Below, piece by piece: positions 27,880 to 46,055 of a DNA stretch of 64,000 nt. The position numbers and the translations under genes are program-made. The stretch's first letter is position 1; each line of letters opens with the position of its first letter. The stretch lies in NCBI GenBank assembly GCA_018653085.1, contig JABIAY010000060.1:2240-66239 (forward strand), in the 5' to 3' direction. The notes under the pieces are model-generated. The model was not told where the DNA came from. It made no database searches and worked only from the letters and a program-made list of their open reading frames with translations. The stretch is from Nitrospina sp. (GTDB lineage Bacteria; Nitrospinota; Nitrospinia; Nitrospinales; VA-1).

Positions 27880-28768
27880 GGTGAATTTTTTATTTGTCAA
27901 TTCTAGAAACTATAGCGCAGTTATTTTCATATTGCCTTTGTTTTTTCTTTTCGGATGTGGAGATTGTGATTGTGAAAAGGAAGAAGATCTTTTGCCTGCT
28001 ATAAAGGTTTCCCAGCGGGACCAGAAAGAAATGGTTCTGGTTCCGTCCGGTGAGTTTATTATGGGTACGAACAAGGTGGACACCGAGGGCACGCATAAAA
28101 AAATTGGCGCGATTAAACCTCTTTATCTCGACCAGCATCCTGAAAGAAAATTACTTCTTGGGTCGTTTTATATGGATCGGTATGAAGTGACCAATGAAGA
28201 GTATCAAGGGTTTTTGCATGCGACCCAGTTTACTGACTTGCCTGCCCACTGGGTGGATGGAGTTTATCCTGAGGAGCAGGCTTCACATCCCGTCACCCAG
28301 GTCACATGGTGGGAGGGTTGGTCGTATTGCATGTGGGCGGGCAAACAGCTACCTACCGAAGCGCAATGGGAAAAATCCGCACGGGGTCCAGACGGTCTTC
28401 CGTATCCATGGGGGAAGGAGTTTGTTAAAGGAAAGGCGAACCTGGGGATTGATGGAGATCGTAAAACAGCGGCTGTCACTGCGTACCCTGAGGATGTGAG
28501 CCCGTATAAAATATATGGCTTGTCAGGGAATGTTATGGAGTGGACTCGGGATTGGTACCTTCCTTACCCGGGAAACTCGAAGCCGGACCGCCGGTTTGGC
28601 AGGGAACTAAAGGTCCTGAGGGGAAATGGATTCCAGAAAGCCGGACATTATTTTTTACCCGCCTACCGATACGCGTTTACTCGCACCGAGGCCAATCCTA
28701 ATGATTTTTTTGAGAATGTGGGGTTCCGTTGCGCATCAGAAATCATCCCGGGAAAAGGTGATCTCTGA
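27878..28768 (+). CDS. FGE-sulfatase (SUMF1)-domain lipoprotein
   Basis: MVLVPSGEFIMG, DRYEVTN, LPTEAQWEK.ARG, GNVMEW, VGFRCA; lipobox LFGC; exact start uncertain. Confidence 0.85.
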   Translation: MVNFLFVNSRNYSAVIFILPLFFLFGCGDCDCEKEEDLLPAIKVSQRDQKEMVLVPSGEFIMGTNKVDTEGTHKKIGAIKPLYLDQHPERKLLLGSFYMDRYEVTNEEYQGFLHATQFTDLPAHWVDGVYPEEQASHPVTQVTWWEGWSYCMWAGKQLPTEAQWEKSARGPDGLPYPWGKEFVKGKANLGIDGDRKTAAVTAYPEDVSPYKIYGLSGNVMEWTRDWYLPYPGNSKPDRRFGRELKVLRGNGFQKAGHYFLPAYRYAFTRTEANPNDFFENVGFRCASEIIPGKGDL

Positions 28769-28793
28769 AAATTTAGGGGTCAATGTCCGGGTG

Positions 28794-29648
28794 TTACCCG
28801 GCCAGGATGGTGTTTTCCAGGTTGGCGCCCTTGGTAATCGCTTTTGCAATGTTGGCATCTACCAGATACGCATCTGAAAGGTTGGCGTTGGTAAAGCTTG
28901 TGCCATGCAAATTGGCTTCCAGGAGAAAGGCGTTTTGAAGGTTGGCTCCTTCCATGTTGGCGTAGGTCAGATCAGATCCCTCCATGTTGGCTTCTTCCAA
29001 AACGATTCCTGCGCATTGAGCGTCTTTCAAATCCACACCAATCAGGTTTGCGTTGGTCAAATTGACTTCTTTAAAGGTGCAGGAGTTAAGGTCTGCGTAT
29101 TTCAGTATGGAACCCTTTAAGTCTACTTCAGTCAATTTAGAAAAGCTCAAGTCGCATCCCCTCGCATTGGCTCCTCCCAGTCGGGATTTATTTATGATGG
29201 CCTGTTTCATGAAGGTGTACATCATCCGGGCGAATCCCATATTGCTGTTTTCTATAGTGGCGGAATAAAAACTGGCGTGGCCCAGGTTTGCACCCTGGAA
29301 GTCACATTCGTTTATGTTGGCTCGTGAAAAATCACAGTTGGTCAGGGTAGCATTTTTGAAATTACAGCCCACCATATTTGCGCCTTCAAAGTTGACCCCT
29401 TCAAGGTTAGCTCCTGTAAAATTCAGGTCCTTGATCTTTGCATTTTTCATGGATGACTTTTCCAGAGAAGCTTGGGAAAAATCAACTTCGCACAGTTCGG
29501 AGTCGTCTATAACCGTCTCAACCAGAGTTGCGTAAACAAAGCTGGCGCCATTGAGGCTTACCCCTTTCAGGTCAAAGCCACTGAAATCGCCCCCATCCTG
29601 CTTGGGCTCTTTCATGATTAATGAAATCATCTCATCAACGTTTGACAT
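28794..29648 (-). CDS. pentapeptide repeat protein
   Basis: Nearly the whole protein is A(N/D)(L/F)xx repeats. Confidence 0.92.
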   Translation of the reverse strand: MSNVDEMISLIMKEPKQDGGDFSGFDLKGVSLNGASFVYATLVETVIDDSELCEVDFSQASLEKSSMKNAKIKDLNFTGANLEGVNFEGANMVGCNFKNATLTNCDFSRANINECDFQGANLGHASFYSATIENSNMGFARMMYTFMKQAIINKSRLGGANARGCDLSFSKLTEVDLKGSILKYADLNSCTFKEVNLTNANLIGVDLKDAQCAGIVLEEANMEGSDLTYANMEGANLQNAFLLEANLHGTSFTNANLSDAYLVDANIAKAITKGANLENTILAG

Positions 29649-29654
29649 TTACTT

Positions 29655-30482
29655 TTATTCCCTCTGTTGAGATGGTGGCAGAAGTGCGTTCATGCTCCGC
29701 TGAATTTTTTGCGGATTTACCCTGTCATGAATTCCAATGATGCCAACCCGTATGGCCTTGAATAAAACGCCTTCCATATCCGTTCTGCTGGCCAACTTCG
29801 CCGCGACGGGAGTCAAAATGAGGTTGGCCAGCATGAGACCGTAAAATGTAGTGATCAACGCAGTGGCCAGGGCAGGGCCAATGGTTGCCGGATCGTCAAG
29901 ATGCATCAGCATTTGTACCAGACCAATTAATGTGCCGGCCATTCCAAATACAGGGGCCTGCACGGACATGAAGCGTAAAACCTTTACCCCGGAATTATGC
30001 CGGTCGAGCATGGAGTTTAGTTCTCTTTCCATAAGTTCGTGAATCTCTTTTGCGTTGTAACCATCCACAATCATGGCGATTCCATTTTTAAGGAACCGGT
30101 TGTCCACTTTGCTTTCTTCATTTTCCAGTTGTTTCATGCCACCGGAACGATATTTGGAAGCCAGCCTCATGATGTCATCGACATAATCTTCCGGCTCATA
30201 AATGCCAGGCTTGAAGGCGTTGTTAATAATCGGCACCATCCCGGATACTTTTTTGGAGGGAAATGCGATAAAAGATGTGGAAAGGGCTCCTCCAAGAACG
30301 ATCAAGGCACTGTTGATATTGATAAAAATCCCGGCGTCTCCACCGCGAATAATTGCTACGGTAATGAGAAATATACCTCCCAGAGCACCCAGCAGGGTAC
30401 CGGTATCCATTCCGGTATCCGCACGCTCCTCCTGAGCCAGGTCTGCGGCGGTACCTCGTATTTCTTGAGTTGCTGTGGCCAT
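29655..30482 (-). CDS. motA: MotA/PomA-family stator A subunit
   Basis: APVFGMAGTLIGLVQML, IGPALATALITTFYG, YRSGG...LE cytoplasmic loop. Confidence 0.9.
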   Translation of the reverse strand: MATATQEIRGTAADLAQEERADTGMDTGTLLGALGGIFLITVAIIRGGDAGIFININSALIVLGGALSTSFIAFPSKKVSGMVPIINNAFKPGIYEPEDYVDDIMRLASKYRSGGMKQLENEESKVDNRFLKNGIAMIVDGYNAKEIHELMERELNSMLDRHNSGVKVLRFMSVQAPVFGMAGTLIGLVQMLMHLDDPATIGPALATALITTFYGLMLANLILTPVAAKLASRTDMEGVLFKAIRVGIIGIHDRVNPQKIQRSMNALLPPSQQRE

Positions 30483-30514
30483 GAACCTTTAGGCAGTGAT
30501 GTTAAAATCTAATT

Positions 30515-32692
30515 TCAACTGGCGGCTTTTTCCGCATTAGTCGTGGCCCGTATCAATAATGAGCGCACGATATAATTATTCAGCCAAGGTACCTGTAACA
30601 CTTCTTTTCGGCCGCTGGGGATGTAAACCTTAAGAAAATCGGGCTTTTCAACCTTTTCAGGGCTCAGTTGGGGGCTCAGGTCGCTGATGCACCGGGTCAT
30701 ACAATTTAACCCTGCATAGGATTTGCAGAACAGCTCACCCCAGGAGGTCAAATAAATGGTTGTGATGCTCCGCGCTCGCTCAATTCGTTTATTGATAAAT
30801 TTTGTCAATTCATCGTTATTTTTGCAGTCCCTGATGTTCCCCATACTTATTTCGGGTGGCGGCGGATTGCCAAAGTCCACCAACATGAACAATTGAGTGA
30901 TTTTAGCCTCGTTCAACAGATCCTCATTAGACAATGCGGCGATGTTGACGGACTCGATGAAGCTTTTGAGTATTTGTAGCAATGTAGCCAGATCATTTTC
31001 CTTGATGGCTTGCCCCTCGGCTCTCAGCAAAACTTCGGTGTTTTCACTGTAGAGATGGTTGAAAACAGTAAACGCCAGGAGAAATGGAAGGGTTGCTGAT
31101 TTCCTGATGATATCGTCCTTGTCAATTTGCTCCAGGTAAGCTTGCGTCCTGCCTCGAATCAGGTACCACTCCGGTTTAGCATTTCTATCCTTTTGTTCCA
31201 AAAGGAAGGTCAATTCATTTTCAGCCGTTTTACCATCTACCAAAGCACCCAGGTTATCGACTTTATTGGGGGCGGCTCTGTAAAAACTGAAAAGTTTCCG
31301 ACCTAAAAGATGGGTGTCTTTCTCGGTGATCAAACTTTCACTGGGATCAAGGGTCTTGTTTTTTTCAGAAATATTTTTGTAGGAGGCCATCAAAATTTTA
31401 TTGATACGGTTTCCCAAATCCACCTTATGCATCATTTGCCAGCCGGAATACTGGTTCAGTTTTTCAATTTTATCCGAGCTCCAACCCCACTCCTTCAGCA
31501 TTTTGATCAGGGTGCTCTTTCTCCAGTTATCCGAGCCCTTTTCATACTCCTCGCCAGTAACCTGGGTACCCACCTTTAAATAGAATGCGTGTCTCAGTGC
31601 ATCGACTTCATCCTCAGATTTTGTTTCAGTAAAAAACTTCTGTACTCGCTCGAACATTCCCAGGTAGGGGTCAATATCCAGGTAGGGGACATCATTATAA
31701 TATTTATCTTTAATTTGATGGCATAGCAGGTTCGATTTGGTGTCTCCAAACATATATTCTTCAAGCACCCCCATTTTCATGAGTGTTTTAAAGGGGGATT
31801 TGAAGGATTTGATCAGAGCCCATATCGACCCACCAAAAAATTCTCCATCGGAGATATCATCTACATTGCCCATGTCGATGAATTCTTCTTTTTTGAGGAG
31901 AGTTTTCCCTGATTGGAGCTTTTCATATAGCTCGTAGTACCGGTCATCATCACAGTCCACCGGAGAAACCAGCCAGAAAGGAATTTTCCCAGTGACAATG
32001 ATCATGGTTCGATACATTTCTTCCTTCAGGAGTTTTGCCAAGGCGGACCCTGTGCTTTCACTGTCACTTTCACCAAAGATATTATTTTTGACTTCCTGGT
32101 AATCATTGATGAAAAAATGGGTTTCCAGAGTAAAATTGTCCCAGGTCCACGTCTCTATCAGGTTCAGTTTTTTCTGGAACAGCTTCATGCTTTCTTCAGT
32201 GAAATCCCTTTTGTCTATTAACAAAGTGTAGTCAAGATCGGACTTTTTGGTCTGGGCAATGGAACCCACACTGCCCATAAGCAGAGCAGTATGAATGACG
32301 GGTTTCAGTTCCGGGTTCCTGCGGAGGATTACGTCCGGGAATAGTTTTTCGGCGGCGACCTGGGCTTCTTTATCCAGAGTAAAATTATGGATGCCGCAGG
32401 GGGGATTGCCTTCAAAATAGCCCGGCAAGCCCTCCTGATGCACATGAAGCAGGCGCGGAATAACCAGGAAAATCAGGCGATCAATCTCAGAAAGTGTGAT
32501 CAGGTTTCGATCTATTTTAAACCGGTTGAACTGTAAATAATCCTGCCGGTTTGACAGGAGCATTTCTGCATCCGACTTGATGAGTGTCTGTTGGGCCTTC
32601 TCAATATTTTCTTGCGGGGGTTTTTGGGCAAGCTCTTCCGCGGCAAGAGATTTTTCCATTTGTTCGGTGATAGATTTTTCTACTGATCCCAT
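30515..32692 (-). CDS. cyaA: class I adenylate cyclase
   Basis: MGSVGSIAQ..KSDLD, ETHFF, GSA..KLLKEEMYRT, KS.KSPFK..MK, DPY and FYLK match class I AC catalytic motifs. Confidence 0.85.
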   Translation of the reverse strand: MGSVEKSITEQMEKSLAAEELAQKPPQENIEKAQQTLIKSDAEMLLSNRQDYLQFNRFKIDRNLITLSEIDRLIFLVIPRLLHVHQEGLPGYFEGNPPCGIHNFTLDKEAQVAAEKLFPDVILRRNPELKPVIHTALLMGSVGSIAQTKKSDLDYTLLIDKRDFTEESMKLFQKKLNLIETWTWDNFTLETHFFINDYQEVKNNIFGESDSESTGSALAKLLKEEMYRTMIIVTGKIPFWLVSPVDCDDDRYYELYEKLQSGKTLLKKEEFIDMGNVDDISDGEFFGGSIWALIKSFKSPFKTLMKMGVLEEYMFGDTKSNLLCHQIKDKYYNDVPYLDIDPYLGMFERVQKFFTETKSEDEVDALRHAFYLKVGTQVTGEEYEKGSDNWRKSTLIKMLKEWGWSSDKIEKLNQYSGWQMMHKVDLGNRINKILMASYKNISEKNKTLDPSESLITEKDTHLLGRKLFSFYRAAPNKVDNLGALVDGKTAENELTFLLEQKDRNAKPEWYLIRGRTQAYLEQIDKDDIIRKSATLPFLLAFTVFNHLYSENTEVLLRAEGQAIKENDLATLLQILKSFIESVNIAALSNEDLLNEAKITQLFMLVDFGNPPPPEISMGNIRDCKNNDELTKFINKRIERARSITTIYLTSWGELFCKSYAGLNCMTRCISDLSPQLSPEKVEKPDFLKVYIPSGRKEVLQVPWLNNYIVRSLLIRATTNAEKAAS

Positions 32693-32797
32693 AATAATGA
32701 TGTTATCGCTAGGTTTATGGCTTATTGGTAATTTTACCCTAAAACCAGTTAAAAAACTTTCTCAATAGTATAGGAGCCTTCCAGTAGCTTACGAGGC

Positions 32798-34381
32798 CTA
32801 TTTTTCCGGTTGTTTTGAGCTCGGGCCAGGAGTATCTGGGGCTCCAGGTTTTTTCTCGCCTTCGGTTTTTCCCTTTGTCTTTTGGGCTTCATCTTTAGCG
32901 ACTTCAATCGCTTTCAATATTTTAATTTCCACCCGTCGGTTAGCGGCGCGGTTGTCATCATTGGTGTTGGCTTTAAGCGGACGGAACTCCCCATAACCTG
33001 TTACGACCATTCGTTCAGGCGGAAACCGCATTTTTTCTATAATAAACCGGGCCACCTTTGAAGCTCTGGCGGCTGAAAGTTCCCAGTTGGAAGGAAACTT
33101 GGTGCTCTTCATCGGAACGTTATCGGTGTGACCATCAATAAGCACCTGCTTGACACCTTCTTTCATATCTTCCTGGATGGTGGAAATAATCAGGTCTTCC
33201 GCACCCTCACTGAAGAAAGCATCCCCAGGAGCGAAAAGGTCTGAGGTTGGCAGGAGATGCAGGATCGTTCTCGTATCACTGCGGGAAAGGCTTTCCGCGT
33301 CAACATTGTCTTTAACCAATAGCCGTACCCGTTCCAGCATTTTCATTTCGGCTTTGCTCAAGCGAACATTGACGCTTTCAATACGCATTCTTTTTGACTG
33401 GAACGAGGAAAGGGCCTCGGCAAACTTATTTTCGTCCAGTTTGGAAACGCTGTACATCAAAACGAATACCACCAAAATAAGTGTGATCATATCGGAATAA
33501 GTGATGAGAAAGCCTTCCAGGCCACCAGAGAACTCCGATGCCGCCGCCGCACGGCCTTCAACCATCTGTTGACCGCCTTCACCACCACCACCCTTGGAGC
33601 CACGCCCTTTTTCCTCTTCAAGCAGGACGATTTTCATATCCATTTCGGCATTGTCTTCTTTGAGCATTTCCAAATCAACCATCATCCTGCGGCGCTCTTT
33701 TTCCAGATCTTCCACGTCCTCTTTCAATTCCTGGATGATTTCAGAGGGGAGCATGCCGTCTTCCCCTGCATCCATGCCACCGTAAAGCATATCTTCGTAT
33801 TTTTTTATGAGTTCGTCCTTTTCCTTGACAATATCCTCTGTTACGGCTCCCGATGACATGGAGGTCTTTTTAGCCTTTGACAAATCCGCCTTAAGATCCT
33901 CAATTTTATTCTTTAAGTTGTCAGTAGTTCCGGTGTCCTGGCGGAGGCGCTTCAACTCTCTCATCAGCACACCCCGTTCCCGCTCGAATTTTTTATTAGC
34001 CCCTTTTTCTCTCTCAATCCGTTCCCGAAGAGCATCGACCTTGGTGGCAAGCTTGGCCATTTTCTCCTTCATTTTTTCGTCCATCTGAGCCTCAATGCGC
34101 TTGTTTATCTCGGCCTCTTCTTCCTCTTTCTCTTTTTTGCCCGCTTCAACTCCAGCATGTTTTGAAAGACGGGCCGCCTCGACCAGGCTTTTTTGTTCGG
34201 CAACCTCCTCTTCTGCAGTCTTGATGCCCGCTTTAAGCTTTTTGACCTCAGTTTGGTTAAAGCTGATCAGGTCTTTGATTTTTTTTGTTACCTTCCCCTT
34301 TTCTTCGTTGGATTTGCGCAACTCGACTGTCTTTATTTTGAGTTGCTCCTTAACTAATTGTAGGGATTCCATATTTTTCAT
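32798..34381 (-). CDS. motB: MotB/PomB-family stator B subunit with a long N-terminal coiled coil
   Basis: FLITYSDMITL TM with the conserved Asp; OmpA-like domain GHTDNVP, NWELSAARA, NRRVEI; ~290 aa K/E-rich N-terminus. Confidence 0.88.
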   Translation of the reverse strand: MKNMESLQLVKEQLKIKTVELRKSNEEKGKVTKKIKDLISFNQTEVKKLKAGIKTAEEEVAEQKSLVEAARLSKHAGVEAGKKEKEEEEAEINKRIEAQMDEKMKEKMAKLATKVDALRERIEREKGANKKFERERGVLMRELKRLRQDTGTTDNLKNKIEDLKADLSKAKKTSMSSGAVTEDIVKEKDELIKKYEDMLYGGMDAGEDGMLPSEIIQELKEDVEDLEKERRRMMVDLEMLKEDNAEMDMKIVLLEEEKGRGSKGGGGEGGQQMVEGRAAAASEFSGGLEGFLITYSDMITLILVVFVLMYSVSKLDENKFAEALSSFQSKRMRIESVNVRLSKAEMKMLERVRLLVKDNVDAESLSRSDTRTILHLLPTSDLFAPGDAFFSEGAEDLIISTIQEDMKEGVKQVLIDGHTDNVPMKSTKFPSNWELSAARASKVARFIIEKMRFPPERMVVTGYGEFRPLKANTNDDNRAANRRVEIKILKAIEVAKDEAQKTKGKTEGEKKPGAPDTPGPSSKQPEK

Positions 34382-34529
34382 AAACTAGCCTCTTGGTTCT
34401 CCTGCATATCGGCAAAAAAGATGGAAAAGGTTATATAATAACAAGAATTTAAGGGCACTACGCCGGGTTAAGGTTGTGCTCCTACAAGTCAATTTTATTG
34501 AATGATATCACGCCTTGTCAATTGCCCAT

Positions 34530-34543
34530 ACTGACCGGTCAGT
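34530..34543. promoter_or_regulatory. perfect 14-bp palindrome, operator-like
   Basis: ACTGACCGGTCAGT in the divergent motB/ampG intergenic region. Confidence 0.45.
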
Positions 34544-34680
34544 TTCGCGTTCCAGGTGAAATGCCTGAAACTCCCTTACTTTAATGATATAAGGGGTTTG
34601 GTTCACGCAGAGCGAGCTAGATTTCAACGTAATGTATTTTATAGGTAAATGCATATAAATTGTTATATATATAGGTAATT

Positions 34681-35898
34681 ATGGATTTATTTTTCAATCG
34701 CAGGGTGGTGGCGGTTTTGTTTCTGGGGTTTTCCTCAGGACTGCCCCTGGCGTTATCGGGAGGAACTTTACAGGCCTGGCTGACGGTGGAGGGGGTCGAT
34801 ATCAAAACTATCGGCCTGTTCACTTTGGTGGGCTTGCCGTATACCTTGAAGTTTCTCTGGTCCCCCTTGCTGGACCGGTTTGTTGTTCCTTTGTTTGGGC
34901 GAAGACGGGGCTGGATTTGGGTGTTTCAAATCATACTGCTTGCCTTGATTTTTGCGATGAGTGTTGTGTCTCCCGTAAAAGCTCCCTGGGTTCTTGCTTT
35001 TCTCGCCTTCTGTTTGGCCTTTGCCTCATCTTCTCAGGATATTGTTGTTGATGCTTACCGCACAGAAGTGCTGAGAGAAAAAGAACGAGGATTGGGGGCG
35101 GCGGTTTCAGTAACGGGGTACCGGATCGCCATGCTGGTTTCCGGGGCTCTGGCTTTGATTCTGTCAGAATTTTTGGGGTGGCGTTCAACGTATATGCTTA
35201 TGGCGGGACTGATGCTTGTGGGTATGACGGCTGTCTGGCTGGGTCCCGAACCCGAGGACCCAGGGATTCCACCCAAGACATTGGGGGAGGCCATTGGCGG
35301 GCCTTTGGTCGAGTTCTTTTCTCGCGATGGTGCCTGGATGTTGTTGGCCCTGATTGTCCTCTACAAACTGGGGGACGCTTTTGCCGGAAGCCTGACCACA
35401 AGCTTCCTGATCCGTGGTGTTGGTTTTTCTGTAGGTGAAGTGGGGGCGATCAACAAAGGGATGGGGCTGGCGGCAACAATTGTGGGGGCTCTGTTTGGCG
35501 GTGTCCTCATGGCTCGGTTGGGACTTTTTCGCTCACTTTTGCTTTTCGGAGTTTTGCAGGCTGTCTCAAATCTTTCATTTATGGTTTTGGCCTGGGTTGG
35601 CAAGAGTTATCCCATGTTGGTTTTCACCATTGGTTTTGAAAATTTGGCGGGAGGGATGGGGACAGCGGCTTTCGTGGCTTTCCTGATGGCGTTGTGTAAC
35701 CACAATTTTACGGCAACACAATTTGCCCTGTTCTCGGCTTTGGCTTCTCTGGGGCGGGTGTTTGTCGGGCCTGCATCGGGTATTTTGGTGGATGAGTTTG
35801 GCTGGCTTCTGTTTTTCCTGGTAACATTTTTAGCCGCGATACCGGGGCTGATACTCTTATGGAAAATGCGCCCCAGGCTTCAAGCCCTCGACCACTAG
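34681..35898 (+). CDS. ampG: AmpG muropeptide MFS permease
   Basis: LGFSSGLP, KFLWSP, SSQDIVVDAYR, YKLGDAF, TATQFAL. Confidence 0.95.
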   Translation: MDLFFNRRVVAVLFLGFSSGLPLALSGGTLQAWLTVEGVDIKTIGLFTLVGLPYTLKFLWSPLLDRFVVPLFGRRRGWIWVFQIILLALIFAMSVVSPVKAPWVLAFLAFCLAFASSSQDIVVDAYRTEVLREKERGLGAAVSVTGYRIAMLVSGALALILSEFLGWRSTYMLMAGLMLVGMTAVWLGPEPEDPGIPPKTLGEAIGGPLVEFFSRDGAWMLLALIVLYKLGDAFAGSLTTSFLIRGVGFSVGEVGAINKGMGLAATIVGALFGGVLMARLGLFRSLLLFGVLQAVSNLSFMVLAWVGKSYPMLVFTIGFENLAGGMGTAAFVAFLMALCNHNFTATQFALFSALASLGRVFVGPASGILVDEFGWLLFFLVTFLAAIPGLILLWKMRPRLQALDH

Positions 35899-41932: not shown

Positions 41933-44900
41933 ATGCCTGGTATAAAAAAAACAGCCTGCATTTATCGTAGTTTCTTCTCCTCTATTGTCGCACTGTTTTT
42001 TCTTTTCCTATTGAGCCCAAGTGTTTTTGCCGCTGACCTGACGGTTTCTACTGCATTGACCGCAACGCAAAACTTCTCTACTTTGGGTGATGACCTGACC
42101 GTAACAGCTGCGGGTTCGATCATTCCTTCCACGCCTGCCACACCTGGGGCCGCTACCAATCCTGCGACCGGTACCGCCAACAACGGAGACGCCGTCGATT
42201 TTAGCGGTGCGGCAACCAACGGAACGATAACTTCAGCCGGAACTATTACTGGGGGTGCCGGGGGTGCCGGTGGCGATGACTCCGATACCGGAGGCGTTAC
42301 TTCAAACGCTACGACAGGTGGTGCCGGTGCCGCAGGTGCCTTGGGAATCGATTTTAATGTGGGGAATACCATAACCATAACCGCTGGTACCGTGACAGGG
42401 GGTGCCGGTGGCGCAGGGGGAACAGGTGAGGGGCCTACCAATGCGGCTGGAGGAACGGGTGGTGCAGGGGCATCAGGTGGAACTGGAATAGATACAACGG
42501 GGGCGGGCGGGGTGACAATTGATATAAACGGCGGCGCAGTTGCCGGTGGCGCAGGTGGCAATGGCGGTACCGGTGGCACGACTACAAGTGCTACTGCCAA
42601 TGGAGGTACAGGCGGTGCGGGGAGTACAGGTGCCACGGGTCTTTTAACGGCTTCCGGTGATACCGTGACAGTTTCCAGTGGAGCAAATATTACCGGTGGC
42701 GCCGGGGGCTCGGGAGGTACTGGTGGTGGTGGTTCTACAACCGGTAACGGCGGTGCCGGGGGAAACGGGGCCACTGCGGGTACAGGTGCGCAATTAATTG
42801 GTAGTACAACCATGACGGTATCGGGAACGATAACAGGCGGAGCAGGTGGAAGCGGAGGAACGGGGGGAGTGAGTAATAACAACAACGCTTCCGTAGGGGG
42901 TGCGGGTGGGAGCGGTGGAACCGGCAATATTGGTATACAAGCTTTGACCACAACGGGAGGAACGATCACGGTCAAATCGGGGGGAGAAGTCAAAGGTGGC
43001 GCTGGGGGCGCGGGAGGTGCAGGGGGCGCGGCCAATGCCACGGATGGGGACGGTGGAGCTGGCGGTAATGGAGGCGAAGGTGGTAGGGGTATTGTAGCCT
43101 CTGTGGCGACAACGATCAATGTTGAGGCCGGCGGCAAGGTTACAGGGGGCGCTGGCGGGGCGAATGGTGCCGATGGAGCAGAAGGCGCCAGCTCAAATGC
43201 CGATACCAGCCAGGCCAGCGCTGCTTCTGGTGCATCTGGAATTCAGGAAAGCTCCTCGAGTGGCACAACTACAATAACCAATGCTGGGACGATCACTGGT
43301 GGCGCGGGCGGCTCAGGACTTGATGCAAACCAGACCGACCAACTTGGTGGACAGGGCAATTCAAGTGGCAACGGTCTAGGTATTGTTATTACTGGATCAG
43401 CTAATAGAACTGTTACCAATACCGGTTCTATTATAGGCGGTGCTGGCGGCAATGATGGGGCCGCCAATGGCACCGCTGATGCGTCTTCTCAAGTAGCGGG
43501 GCAAGGATCTACGGGTGTCAACTTTGCTAGTACTCTTACATTAAATAATAATACGAGTGGTTCTATAACTGGTGGTGCGGGTGGCACGGGTATGACCGGT
43601 GGCACAGGCAATGCTTCCGGAAAAGGAGGAATTGGTGGAGCGGGTGTTTCTGGAACAAATAATGGCACTTTTAACAACACGGGTGGAACCATCACGGGTG
43701 GCGTGGGAGGCACAGGTGGTTTGGGGAATGCTACGGCAAGTACTGATACTGGTGGTGCCGGGGGGGGCGGGCGGTATAGGAGCAAGTTTTAGCTTCGGTA
43801 CAGTTAGCATTGATAATACCGGTGGAACGATCACGGGTGGCACTGGGGGTACGGGGGGGGCGGCGCAAAACGCATCTGCCAATGGTGGCGCAGGAGGTAC
43901 AGGAGGTGTTGGTTTAGAATACGATAATACCACGACATTGACCAATGCCAATGTAATAGAAGGTGGCGCAGGAGGCACAGGTGGGGCCGGGGGTGCAAGT
44001 GGTACGGGTGGGAATGGGGGTGCCGGAGGGGTGGCGGTGAACATCACTGCCGCCACGACTTTCACCAACAACGGCACTGTCACCGCCGGTTCCGGTGGTT
44101 CAGCAGGCAGTGGTGGTACGTCAGGTTCTGCAGGTTCTTCGGGCAATGCCATCACCGGTGATAACAACGCTATCACTATTACCAATACCGGCAGCATCAC
44201 CGGAAATATCTCAATGGGGACGGCTGTTGATACCTTTAATATGAACGGCGGTACCATCACCGGAAATATTGACCTGGGTACCGGCGCTAATGTTGCTTCC
44301 GCAACCAAAGGAACCATCAACGGAATATTCGATATTGGTGCCGCGACAGCAGACGCTACCATTAATCCTTCGTCAGGAAATACAGTCAGCTTTCTAAACT
44401 CGGGTGCGACCGCTTTGGAGTCGACCGGCCTGGACTTTGCCTTGAGTGGTGCAGGCACCGTTGTCATCAACGGCAACGTTGTGGATACTTCAGCTTCCGC
44501 CACTGACCTGGATCAAACAGCCGGAACATTGGAGTTTTCCGGCAACTCGGCGATCGATGGTGCCCTCTTATCATCGGGAGCTTCAACCATTGTGGATCTT
44601 TCCACTAATGATGTCACCGTTGCCGCCGCATCGACACTTGGAACCTCCGGTTCAACACTCAAGGTAACTATCGATAATACGGCAGGCAGCAGTGGCTCCC
44701 TGGCTACCTCAGCGGCGGTGGCGATCACGGTTAATGATTCACTGATAATATCCCCGACAGTAGGAAATGTGATCGCGGGTGAAGCGATAACTATCATCGA
44801 TGGGGCTGCCGGTGGCGGCACGCTCAGTATCACGACCCTGGCCACCTTGCAGAGCAACCTGTCTGTTTCGGGTGCAAGCATCCGTCATGACAACTTCACT

Positions 44901-46055
44901 CTGGCAAACACCGGTCAGACTTTAACAATCACTGCGGGCCTGGCGTCATTGAGTCTTTCCGGTTCTGCGGGTGGGGTCAATGACGTGGCCGATACAGCCT
45001 TTGCCAGTGACAGCACTCTTTTAAATGCATTGAACGCCGTTTCATCATCGGACGGACTCAACGATGCACTGGAATCTCTGGCCCCCGTGGTTAACGGTGG
45101 CGCGATAGTGGGCTCTGTGTCTGCTGGAACTGCTTCCAGGAAAGTGGTTCAAACACGTATGGCAAATCTTCGCATCGGGATCTCTGCCGGGCAGGGACTT
45201 GCCAGTGGTGATGAGTATGAGGGAGAAAGAAATTTCTGGACGCAGGGTTTCGGCACCTTTGCCGATCAGAGGGGTCGTGATGGCTTTGATGGTTTTGATG
45301 CCGTCACCGGTGGTTTCGCGTTGGGTGCGGACAAACCTGTTTCTAAAAACCTGACGGGAGGTCTGGCCTTCAGCTATGCTTTCACCAATGTAAACTCAGA
45401 CCGTTCTGCCAATCGAACATTGATCAACAGTTTTCAGACAACAGGATATGGCAGCTACGAGTTCGGTTCCTATTTTCTGGAAAGCATGGTTTCACTGAGC
45501 TACACCACTTATGAGGGATTGCGAAGCATCAGTGTGGGTAGCGTTGAACGACGAGCCAGAGCCGACTATGACGGTGCACAAGGTTCCATCAAGGCAGGCC
45601 TTGGTCGCGAATTCAGATTTGATGACGGTGTAGAGATAACACCCAGCATATCGTTGCAGTACAACCACGTTTATATAGACAGCTACACGGAAAGCGGAGC
45701 CGATGCATCGAATCTGGATGTTGGCAGTCAGAACTACGACAGTCTTTATTTAACCTTGAATAGCGAATTCAGCCGTACTTACGAAATAGACGCGGGAACT
45801 TTGGCTCCTGAGATCCATATTGGATATATGTACGAGGCTTTGGATGAAAAGGTTTCCACAACATCTACCTTTACTGGCGGTGGCGGGTCTTTCAAGACCA
45901 GCGGGTTTGACCCGGCCAACCACAGTTTGCTTGCCGGAGCCGGTTTAACTTTTGCCAGCCTGGACAATTTCGATCTGAAAGCCACGTATGATATGGAGAT
46001 GAAAGACGATTATACCAGCCACTCGGCTCTGCTTCGCGGAGAATGGAAGTTTTAA
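41933..46055 (+). pseudogene. Gly-rich autotransporter frameshifted at a G8 tract (43760-43767)
   Basis: ORF 41933-43792 (signal peptide plus GGXGG passenger) and ORF ending at 46055 (autotransporter barrel, ..GEWKF) join into 1373 aa if one G is removed. Confidence 0.85.

Follow-up and report, generated by a model that had tools for sequence, protein, structure and literature searches.

A flagellar-type stator of Nitrospinales with a long-armed MotB, encoded in an operon with a class I adenylate cyclase homologue

Introduction

The closest described systems to the locus presented here are the PomAB and MotPS stators (TGI4, 'flagellar ion transporters', PMC12505986; PDB 8brd, 6ysf, 9ljk). In the accessible part of that paper the plug, the OmpA-like domain and an expanded cytoplasmic domain are given as traits of the flagellar clade, and the available text of PMC11725899 describes MotA as turning around a wall-anchored MotB dimer. 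Zorya ZorA5B2 belongs to the same 5:2 ion-motor family and also has a wall-binding B subunit; its A pentamer has a long coiled-coil tail in the cytoplasm, through which a signal is proposed to reach soluble effectors (PMC11946911, available portion). Within the accessible parts of the sources, flagellar load in Pseudomonas aeruginosa is connected with cAMP through FlhF and FimV, and cAMP acts back on motor or stators (PMC6855561); in Vibrio a class I cyclase is reported to be tied to sodium-driven motility (PMC13079933); and in Campylobacter jejuni FlgX, associated with the PilZ family, forms a tetramer of its own on MotA without binding c-di-GMP and provides a cytoplasmic element under each stator (PMC11725899).

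Here we describe a four-gene operon in a window of 64,000 nucleotides (the whole stretch of DNA analysed) from a Nitrospina sp. contig, encoding a stator pair, MotAB1, whose MotB carries a long N-terminal arm. It shares with PomAB/MotPS the transmembrane (TM) Asp, the plug and the OmpA domain of MotB and, in MotA1, the Na+-site threonines and the equivalents of R88, D114 and E96. It differs from them in gene order, B usually following directly after A whereas motB lies here upstream of motA with a cyclase gene in between, as well as in a Trp-to-Phe change before the Asp motif, the loss of K89 and an N-terminal extension of MotA1. The arm has a likeness to the Zorya coiled coil but sits on the B dimer, and in contrast to the P. 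aeruginosa link the stator operon itself contains a class I cyclase gene and the arm belongs to MotB. Unlike with FlgX, the cytoplasmic element is formed by the N-terminus of MotB, and the c-di-GMP motifs are intact in the PilZ protein encoded next to a second long-armed stator, paralogue 2. No armed MotB–cyclase stator was found in a literature search that had most subscription journals outside its coverage, and the accessible main text of PMC12505986 does not contain 'Nitrospin', 'coiled' or 'cyclase'. The locus represents a real, order-wide and apparently undescribed flagellar stator variant.

Features of the locus

The operon and its parts are all located on the reverse strand of the window.

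34406..34433, minus strand: sigma-28 (FliA)-type promoter-like site, with the -35 element at 34433-34426 and the -10 element at 34413-34406
32798..34381, minus strand: motB paralogue 1, 527 aa, consisting of arm, TM helix with plug, and OmpA-like wall-binding domain
33596..34381, minus strand: segmented coiled-coil arm, residues 1-262
33512..33595, minus strand: linker, residues 263-290, disordered and then with a conserved juxtamembrane motif
33395..33517, minus strand: MotB TM helix with Asp297, and plug (Pfam MotB_plug, residues 289-329)
32936..33190, minus strand: OmpA-family peptidoglycan-binding domain (Pfam, residues 398-482)
30515..32692, minus strand: class I adenylate cyclase homologue, 725 aa
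29655..30482, minus strand: motA paralogue 1, 275 aa, PomA/MotP-like, with a 24-aa N-terminal extension
28794..29648, minus strand: pentapeptide-repeat protein, 284 aa, co-distributed with the cyclase

The gene order motB–class I cyclase–motA–pentapeptide protein was present in 20/20 loci, which were picked across genera from strong matches; four genes missed by clustering were placed from other results. Throughout the order the locus is found at the same place in the chromosome, next to ampG. A cyclase search of the genome contigs returned 29 loci, all from Nitrospinota (close relatives only), and no mot genes were found at 17 cyclase loci from other orders of the class, some of which are on short contigs. 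Contigs from metatranscriptomes (4 runs, 3 studies) span the greater part of 28711-34407, the arm being covered in part, and none of them reaches into 34408-34618; DNA carry-over is possible in these data, which we therefore do not count as evidence.

Several observations concern the surroundings of the operon and its copies. The AmpG-like MFS gene (34681-35898) and the operon are divergently oriented at nearly every locus, even where motB and motA have been lost. Diverged copies (L079:7995-12253; L081:6534-8526) include tandem duplicated long MotBs with eroded motifs in the order motB-motB-motA-cyaA, and another copy adjoins a fliG gene. Elsewhere in the window, a Gly/Thr-rich low-complexity passenger and an autotransporter-like barrel lie in different frames at 41933-43792 and 43599-46055; the split within 41933-46055 is possibly a frameshift.

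MotB1 matches PF13677 (MotB_plug) over the cut-off at residues 289-329 and PF00691 (OmpA) at residues 398-482. The preliminary description had placed the TM with the essential Asp near residue 290, and D297 within the plug match is where that Asp lies; it is present in 22/22 MotB1 orthologue rows, all 22 of which also have Phe instead of the usual Trp at residue 291. Hydrophobicity upstream of the TM reaches a maximum of only 0.25, against 2.3 at residue 291 (19-residue Kyte-Doolittle window). With no hydrophobic stretch ahead of it there is, as had been noted before, no signal peptide, nor an additional TM, and the N-terminus is therefore predicted to be cytoplasmic.

The K/E-rich, heptad-like character first ascribed to this N-terminus is borne out by a K+E content of 33% in residues 1-285 and by a 3.5-residue periodicity of the alignment-averaged hydrophobicity in four arm segments (residues 5-70, p=0.0006; 100-175, p<0.0002; 180-200, p=0.025; 212-258, p=0.028). 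AlphaFold2 modelled the monomer (pLDDT 72.5, pTM 0.32) with helices at 2-99, 102-176, 178-200 and 212-262, followed by a disordered linker at 263-278; the pTM of 0.32 means that the packing of the arm helices is left undefined by the model. The coiled coil of about 290 aa originally proposed is hence a long arm indeed, although shorter (about 260 aa) and segmented instead of one continuous rod, and of the Gly-rich linker a similar length is kept while the Gly run itself does not extend beyond close relatives. Topology, conservation and the monomer model agree with the earlier suggestion of a helical structure projecting into the cytoplasm from the non-rotating subunit; its dimeric state would follow from membership of the MotA5B2 family. 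Fully extended, the approximately 247 helical residues would span some 37 nm, past the C-ring. The top Foldseek matches were the periplasmic domains of MotS and PomB, and among the matches listed only the wall-binding domain was aligned. The ESM Atlas gave no usable match for the arm, which implies neither absence nor novelty.

Conservation of the long N-terminus

Such an extension could be an artefact of a misplaced start codon or of a chimeric assembly, and the preliminary description had named both. Full-length, unbroken MotB1 matches with 42-100% identity were obtained from 36/61 genomes in all four Nitrospinales families, so the gene is not a chimera; contig ends or a frameshift divide MotB1 in three further genomes. 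The orthologues share an aligned start Met, with an in-frame stop a few codons upstream in most, and compared with ten congeners the dN/dS of residues 1-285 is 0.084 (with pS at 0.67, near saturation), indicating purifying selection on the tail and a start that does not lie near the TM. The most constrained part of the arm comprises residues 181-258 (dN/dS 0.041), and its conserved motifs are KEQL near the start, K188, YEKMLYG and LPSEII. As to the length distribution of homologues, the TM Asp is found at positions 284-315 in 21/22 orthologues, the exception being frameshifted, and at 284-300 in 20/22. An artefact, in favour of which nothing was found and for which we see practically no chance, is already refuted by this conservation.

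The long-armed MotB family is compact. The N-terminus before the TM has about 290 residues here versus 20-42 in most MotBs from other orders of the class, where 45 MotB_plug matches (10 genomes) lie in open frames of at most 349 aa. When a profile of tail and TM was run against 1.84 billion representatives, 44 of the 150 matches listed extended into the arm, one of them being an unrelated DnaJ fusion, and the remaining 106 covered the TM/plug region alone. The named relatives are Nitrospinota, mostly Nitrospina/Nitrospinaceae.

Stator identity and promoter

MotA1 has PomA as its best match (E 1.8e-49) and is colinear with it. The equivalents of PomA T158, T185 and T186 are kept in 24/24, 23/24 and 24/24 MotA rows, and those of the rotor-contact residues R88, D114 and E96 in 24/24, 24/24 and 20/24 rows, respectively; the K89 position is non-basic in 23/24 rows and His in one. 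According to the available portion of PMC10374538, sodium-driven units conserve these threonines, and rotor contact cannot do without R88, D114 and E96. The curated NCBIfam cut-offs were missed (best scores 206.8 vs 341 for PomA and 132 vs 264 for MotS); because the PomA, MotP, MotB and MotS models are lineage-specific, no equivalog name is given to MotA1 or MotB1. Judging from its residues, MotAB1 is a stator paralogue of the PomAB/MotPS type and likely sodium-driven. Besides paralogues 1 and 2 this genome encodes a canonical short MotAB pair, three pairs in all, so MotAB1 need not drive the rotor.

The locus is lost along with flagella. In 8 of the 44 good genomes MotA and a full flagellar set are missing, and none of these eight carries the cyclase or the pentapeptide gene; 35 of the other 36 have both, the exception having a motB contig that ends just downstream. 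The flagella-less genomes are mostly kin, with 6/8 from one genus, and may stand for perhaps three losses. FliA was over the cut-off in this genome and not in two FliG-less congeners. The fliG gene itself stands alone at G000 C25:4259-5266, apart from the other flagellar genes, and several relatives have two FliG_C matches.

The promoter-like site lies approximately 30 nt ahead of the motB1 start. Its core CCGATA occurs 15-50 nt upstream of the gene in 25/33 orthologues, many of them from congeners, as compared with 0, 0, 0, 1 and 0 of 33 in five control windows; it is absent at that position in 8/33, including the five from family f3. Scoring of 2784 upstream regions of the genome with the sigma-28 consensus gave 21 sites versus 2-8 in shuffles, and the nine best include those of fliD, flgM, a flagellin, a GGDEF-PilZ gene and motB1. 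The consensus was validated within this genome on fliD, flgM and the flagellin genes, the motif preceding all three main flagellins. The site is thus predicted from the DNA to be the motB1 promoter, of a kind common to fliC, fliD and flgM, and MotAB1 is likely made together with the late flagellar genes. Other strong sites of this type precede an SprA-related gene, a GGDEF-PilZ gene and genes for two Pfam-less proteins (L192:198-986; L195:185-1399; L193; L194). A sigma-70 scan was at chance overall (8 sites vs 8.6 expected), with one 11/12 sigma-70-like site at 34521-34492. Just upstream of the latter, between the operon and the AmpG-like gene, is a perfect 14-bp palindrome (34530-34543), which resembles a repressor operator.

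These findings bear on the possibility that MotAB1 is not flagellar at all and serves as a Zorya-like envelope or ion-gradient sensor signalling through its tail. Membership of the 5:2-motor family, the long cytoplasmic tail and an adjacent nucleotide-signalling enzyme speak for such a sensor, and ZorB profiles do match the TM/OmpA part of MotB (E 4e-17). These ZorB matches are, however, generic and weaker than those to MotD/MotS (E 1e-38), and PADLOC found no ZorA, ZorC or ZorD among the four operon proteins, MotA1 included, and no ZorC, ZorD or ZorE match for the cyclase or the pentapeptide protein. The fixed position beside ampG throughout the order, the sigma-28-type site and the loss along with flagella also argue against this explanation, to which we assign a very low probability. 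With its Na+-site threonines and most of the rotor-contact charges, MotA1 points to a late-class flagellar stator and not to Zorya. The resemblance to the ZorA tail drawn in the preliminary description consequently holds as an analogy only, not as kinship, MotA1 being PomA/MotP-like with a flagellar promoter-like site ahead of its operon and the PADLOC matches being generic ZorB hits on TM and OmpA alone.

Related long-armed stators

The same genome encodes a second long-armed pair.

G000 C55:243203-245886 (L033): paralogue 2, motA2-motB2, long-armed, with a MotB2 of 496 aa

The arms of MotB1 and MotB2 are homologous (hhalign 99.9%, E 2.4e-37), and the tail profiles had no other match among the 7050 ORFs of the genome. 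The MotA proteins of the two paralogues are not sisters in the MotA tree, paralogue 2 grouping with the canonical MotA at 93/84, a moderate support. The E96 rotor-contact position is Ser in 19/20 paralogue-2 rows. Paralogue 2 has no cyclase neighbour and no conserved sigma-28-type site close upstream. Instead, motB2 is followed by a PilZ-like gene which overlaps its end and was labelled in 12/20 loci; PF07238 was found on the one copy scanned, and the c-di-GMP motifs RxxxR and DxSxxG are present in 12/12 copies read. Known PilZ brakes act on MotA, and by analogy the PilZ protein of paralogue 2 could act on MotA.

A further subfamily (L200:1961-3742; L084:1162-2918; P0162, P0165, P0286-P0295) has the architecture receiver-arm-TM-OmpA, with a Pfam-confirmed receiver domain at the N-terminal tip of the arm in 11 clusters. 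The subfamily groups as sister of paralogue 1 (SH-aLRT 98), and matches of its arm to the paralogue-1 tail profile have E-values from 7e-12 to 3e-3. The one intact genome locus adjoins an HD-GYP-like gene, and the genome concerned carries the standard operon as well; one further copy is broken. A search of metagenomes yielded no full-length match among 56 loci, and a search of the phylum found the subfamily in at least 1/120, which is an undercount since at most 11 candidates per genome were scored.

Apart from these, other MotBs with an N-terminal zinc ribbon, DnaJ domain or coiled coil of about 100 aa were seen (L186:2844-3890; P0213; L185:1092-2039), the last type pairing with a MotA sister to paralogue 1. 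The cytoplasmic end of MotB therefore tolerates add-ons.

Cyclase and pentapeptide-repeat protein

The cyclase is over the Pfam cut-off and below that of NCBIfam, and no solved structure matched it. Positions S103, S113, D114, D116, W200, E185, K260, K264, D300 and K332 are kept in 34/34 Nitrospinales cyclase rows; together with W118 we take these to be the catalytic-type residues of E. coli CyaA. The position of W118 (residue 156 here) is Thr in 34/34 Nitrospinales rows and Trp in 13/15 rows from other orders. On this pattern the class I cyclase is likely active, though the invariant W118-to-Thr change may bear on both its activity and its product. The pentapeptide-repeat protein is the obligate companion of the cyclase.

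Matches to cNMP-binding domains number 33 in this genome; three cyclase-positive congeners have 20-29 and five cyclase-negative ones 0-6. In two further cyclase-positive genomes, from another family, there are just 7 and 10. This genome also encodes two class III cyclases. The 33 matches lie in a genome of 3.2 Mb, and few are found in the FliG-less congeners; some form tandem arrays of stand-alone cNMP-binding proteins of about 120-140 aa (G000 C11:63057-64735, C15:52106-53760 and C26:3044-5493).

Where MotAB1 has been lost, cyclase and pentapeptide protein are retained together (genus g20, 5/5; g2, 2/2; G002; G036). The promoter-like site is kept in the four g20 loci read and in G002, and none was seen in g2. 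Among 157 invariant cyclase positions 1, 8, 1 and 0 are changed in g20, g2, G002 and G036, compared with 0-11 in controls, so that no relaxation beyond the controls was detected at these positions after stator loss. In those lineages that keep paralogue 2, its arm could substitute.

The retention weighs against one role for the arm, that of a dedicated scaffold and load sensor, an extension of the cyclase scaffold first suggested. The arm would hold the cyclase, together with the pentapeptide protein, beside the rotating MotA, and engagement or stalling of the stator would directly switch cAMP synthesis, so that the stator would act as a mechanosensor in its own right. Nitrospinales would then have three masted stators wired to cAMP, c-di-GMP and a phosphorelay, respectively, and the W118-to-Thr cyclase may even make a different product. 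Such a sensor would fit the cyclase gene between motB and motA in 20/20 loci, the strong constraint on residues 181-258, the extension that MotA1 has of its own and, from the accessible part of PMC6855561, the rise of cAMP under flagellar load in Pseudomonas. Against it stand the survival of the cyclase after MotAB1 loss with changes within the range of the controls, and the sharing of the arm motifs with paralogue 2, which has no cyclase beside it. We regard this role as decidedly unlikely.

Proposed function of the arm

The arm may be a stationary signalling mast on a flagellar stator, docking signalling proteins at the motor, a reading to which we give about an even chance. The wall-fixed MotB dimer would stay still while the MotA ring turns, and the linker (residues 263-290) would leave through the rotating ring, as expected from the 5:2 stator geometry. 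With MotB fixed to peptidoglycan and MotA turning, the arm would be the stator's only non-rotating cytoplasmic handle, and its partners might regulate stator engagement or report it. For paralogue 1 the likely client would be the co-encoded pair of cyclase and pentapeptide protein, the cyclic nucleotide of which could be read by the many cNMP-binding proteins of the genome; for paralogue 2 it would be the PilZ protein, and for the receiver-MotB subfamily the fused receiver domain. The cyclase is a plausible candidate for an arm client; gene neighbourhood is indirect evidence.

A purely structural arm would account for part of the same evidence. Here the arms, whether of adjacent stators or of the two paralogues, would bundle or bind a polar or cytoplasmic scaffold and so hold the stator ring, a part played by FlgX in Campylobacter, with the cyclase in the operon solely for sigma-28 co-expression. 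The near-constant arm length (Asp at 284-300 in 20/22 orthologues), the presence of the same arm on two stator lineages with non-sister MotA proteins, and a cyclase that keeps both its promoter-like site and its full constraint after the loss of motB and motA are consistent with this, and the available text of PMC11725899 provides a precedent for a cytoplasmic stabiliser of the stator ring. It would leave unexplained, however, the receiver fused at the arm tip in 11 clusters and the cyclase gene that splits motB from motA in 20/20 loci, and we hold it to be rather unlikely. The signalling mast is ranked first because the same arm recurs in three settings, next to a cyclase gene, next to a PilZ gene and fused to a receiver; it is followed by the structural scaffold, the cyclase load sensor and the non-flagellar sensor, in that order.

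Conclusions

By what route load or surface contact at the flagellar motor gives rise to second-messenger signals is an open question of long standing, and the other links from motor to messenger considered here go through MotA or separate proteins. The non-rotating subunit described here offers a built-in cytoplasmic handle, which evolution has paired with three different signalling modules, including a receiver fused to its tip. Since its four genes can be expressed together in a laboratory strain, the locus makes the coupling of a stator to cAMP directly testable, and it bears on the control of motility in a major group of marine nitrite oxidisers.
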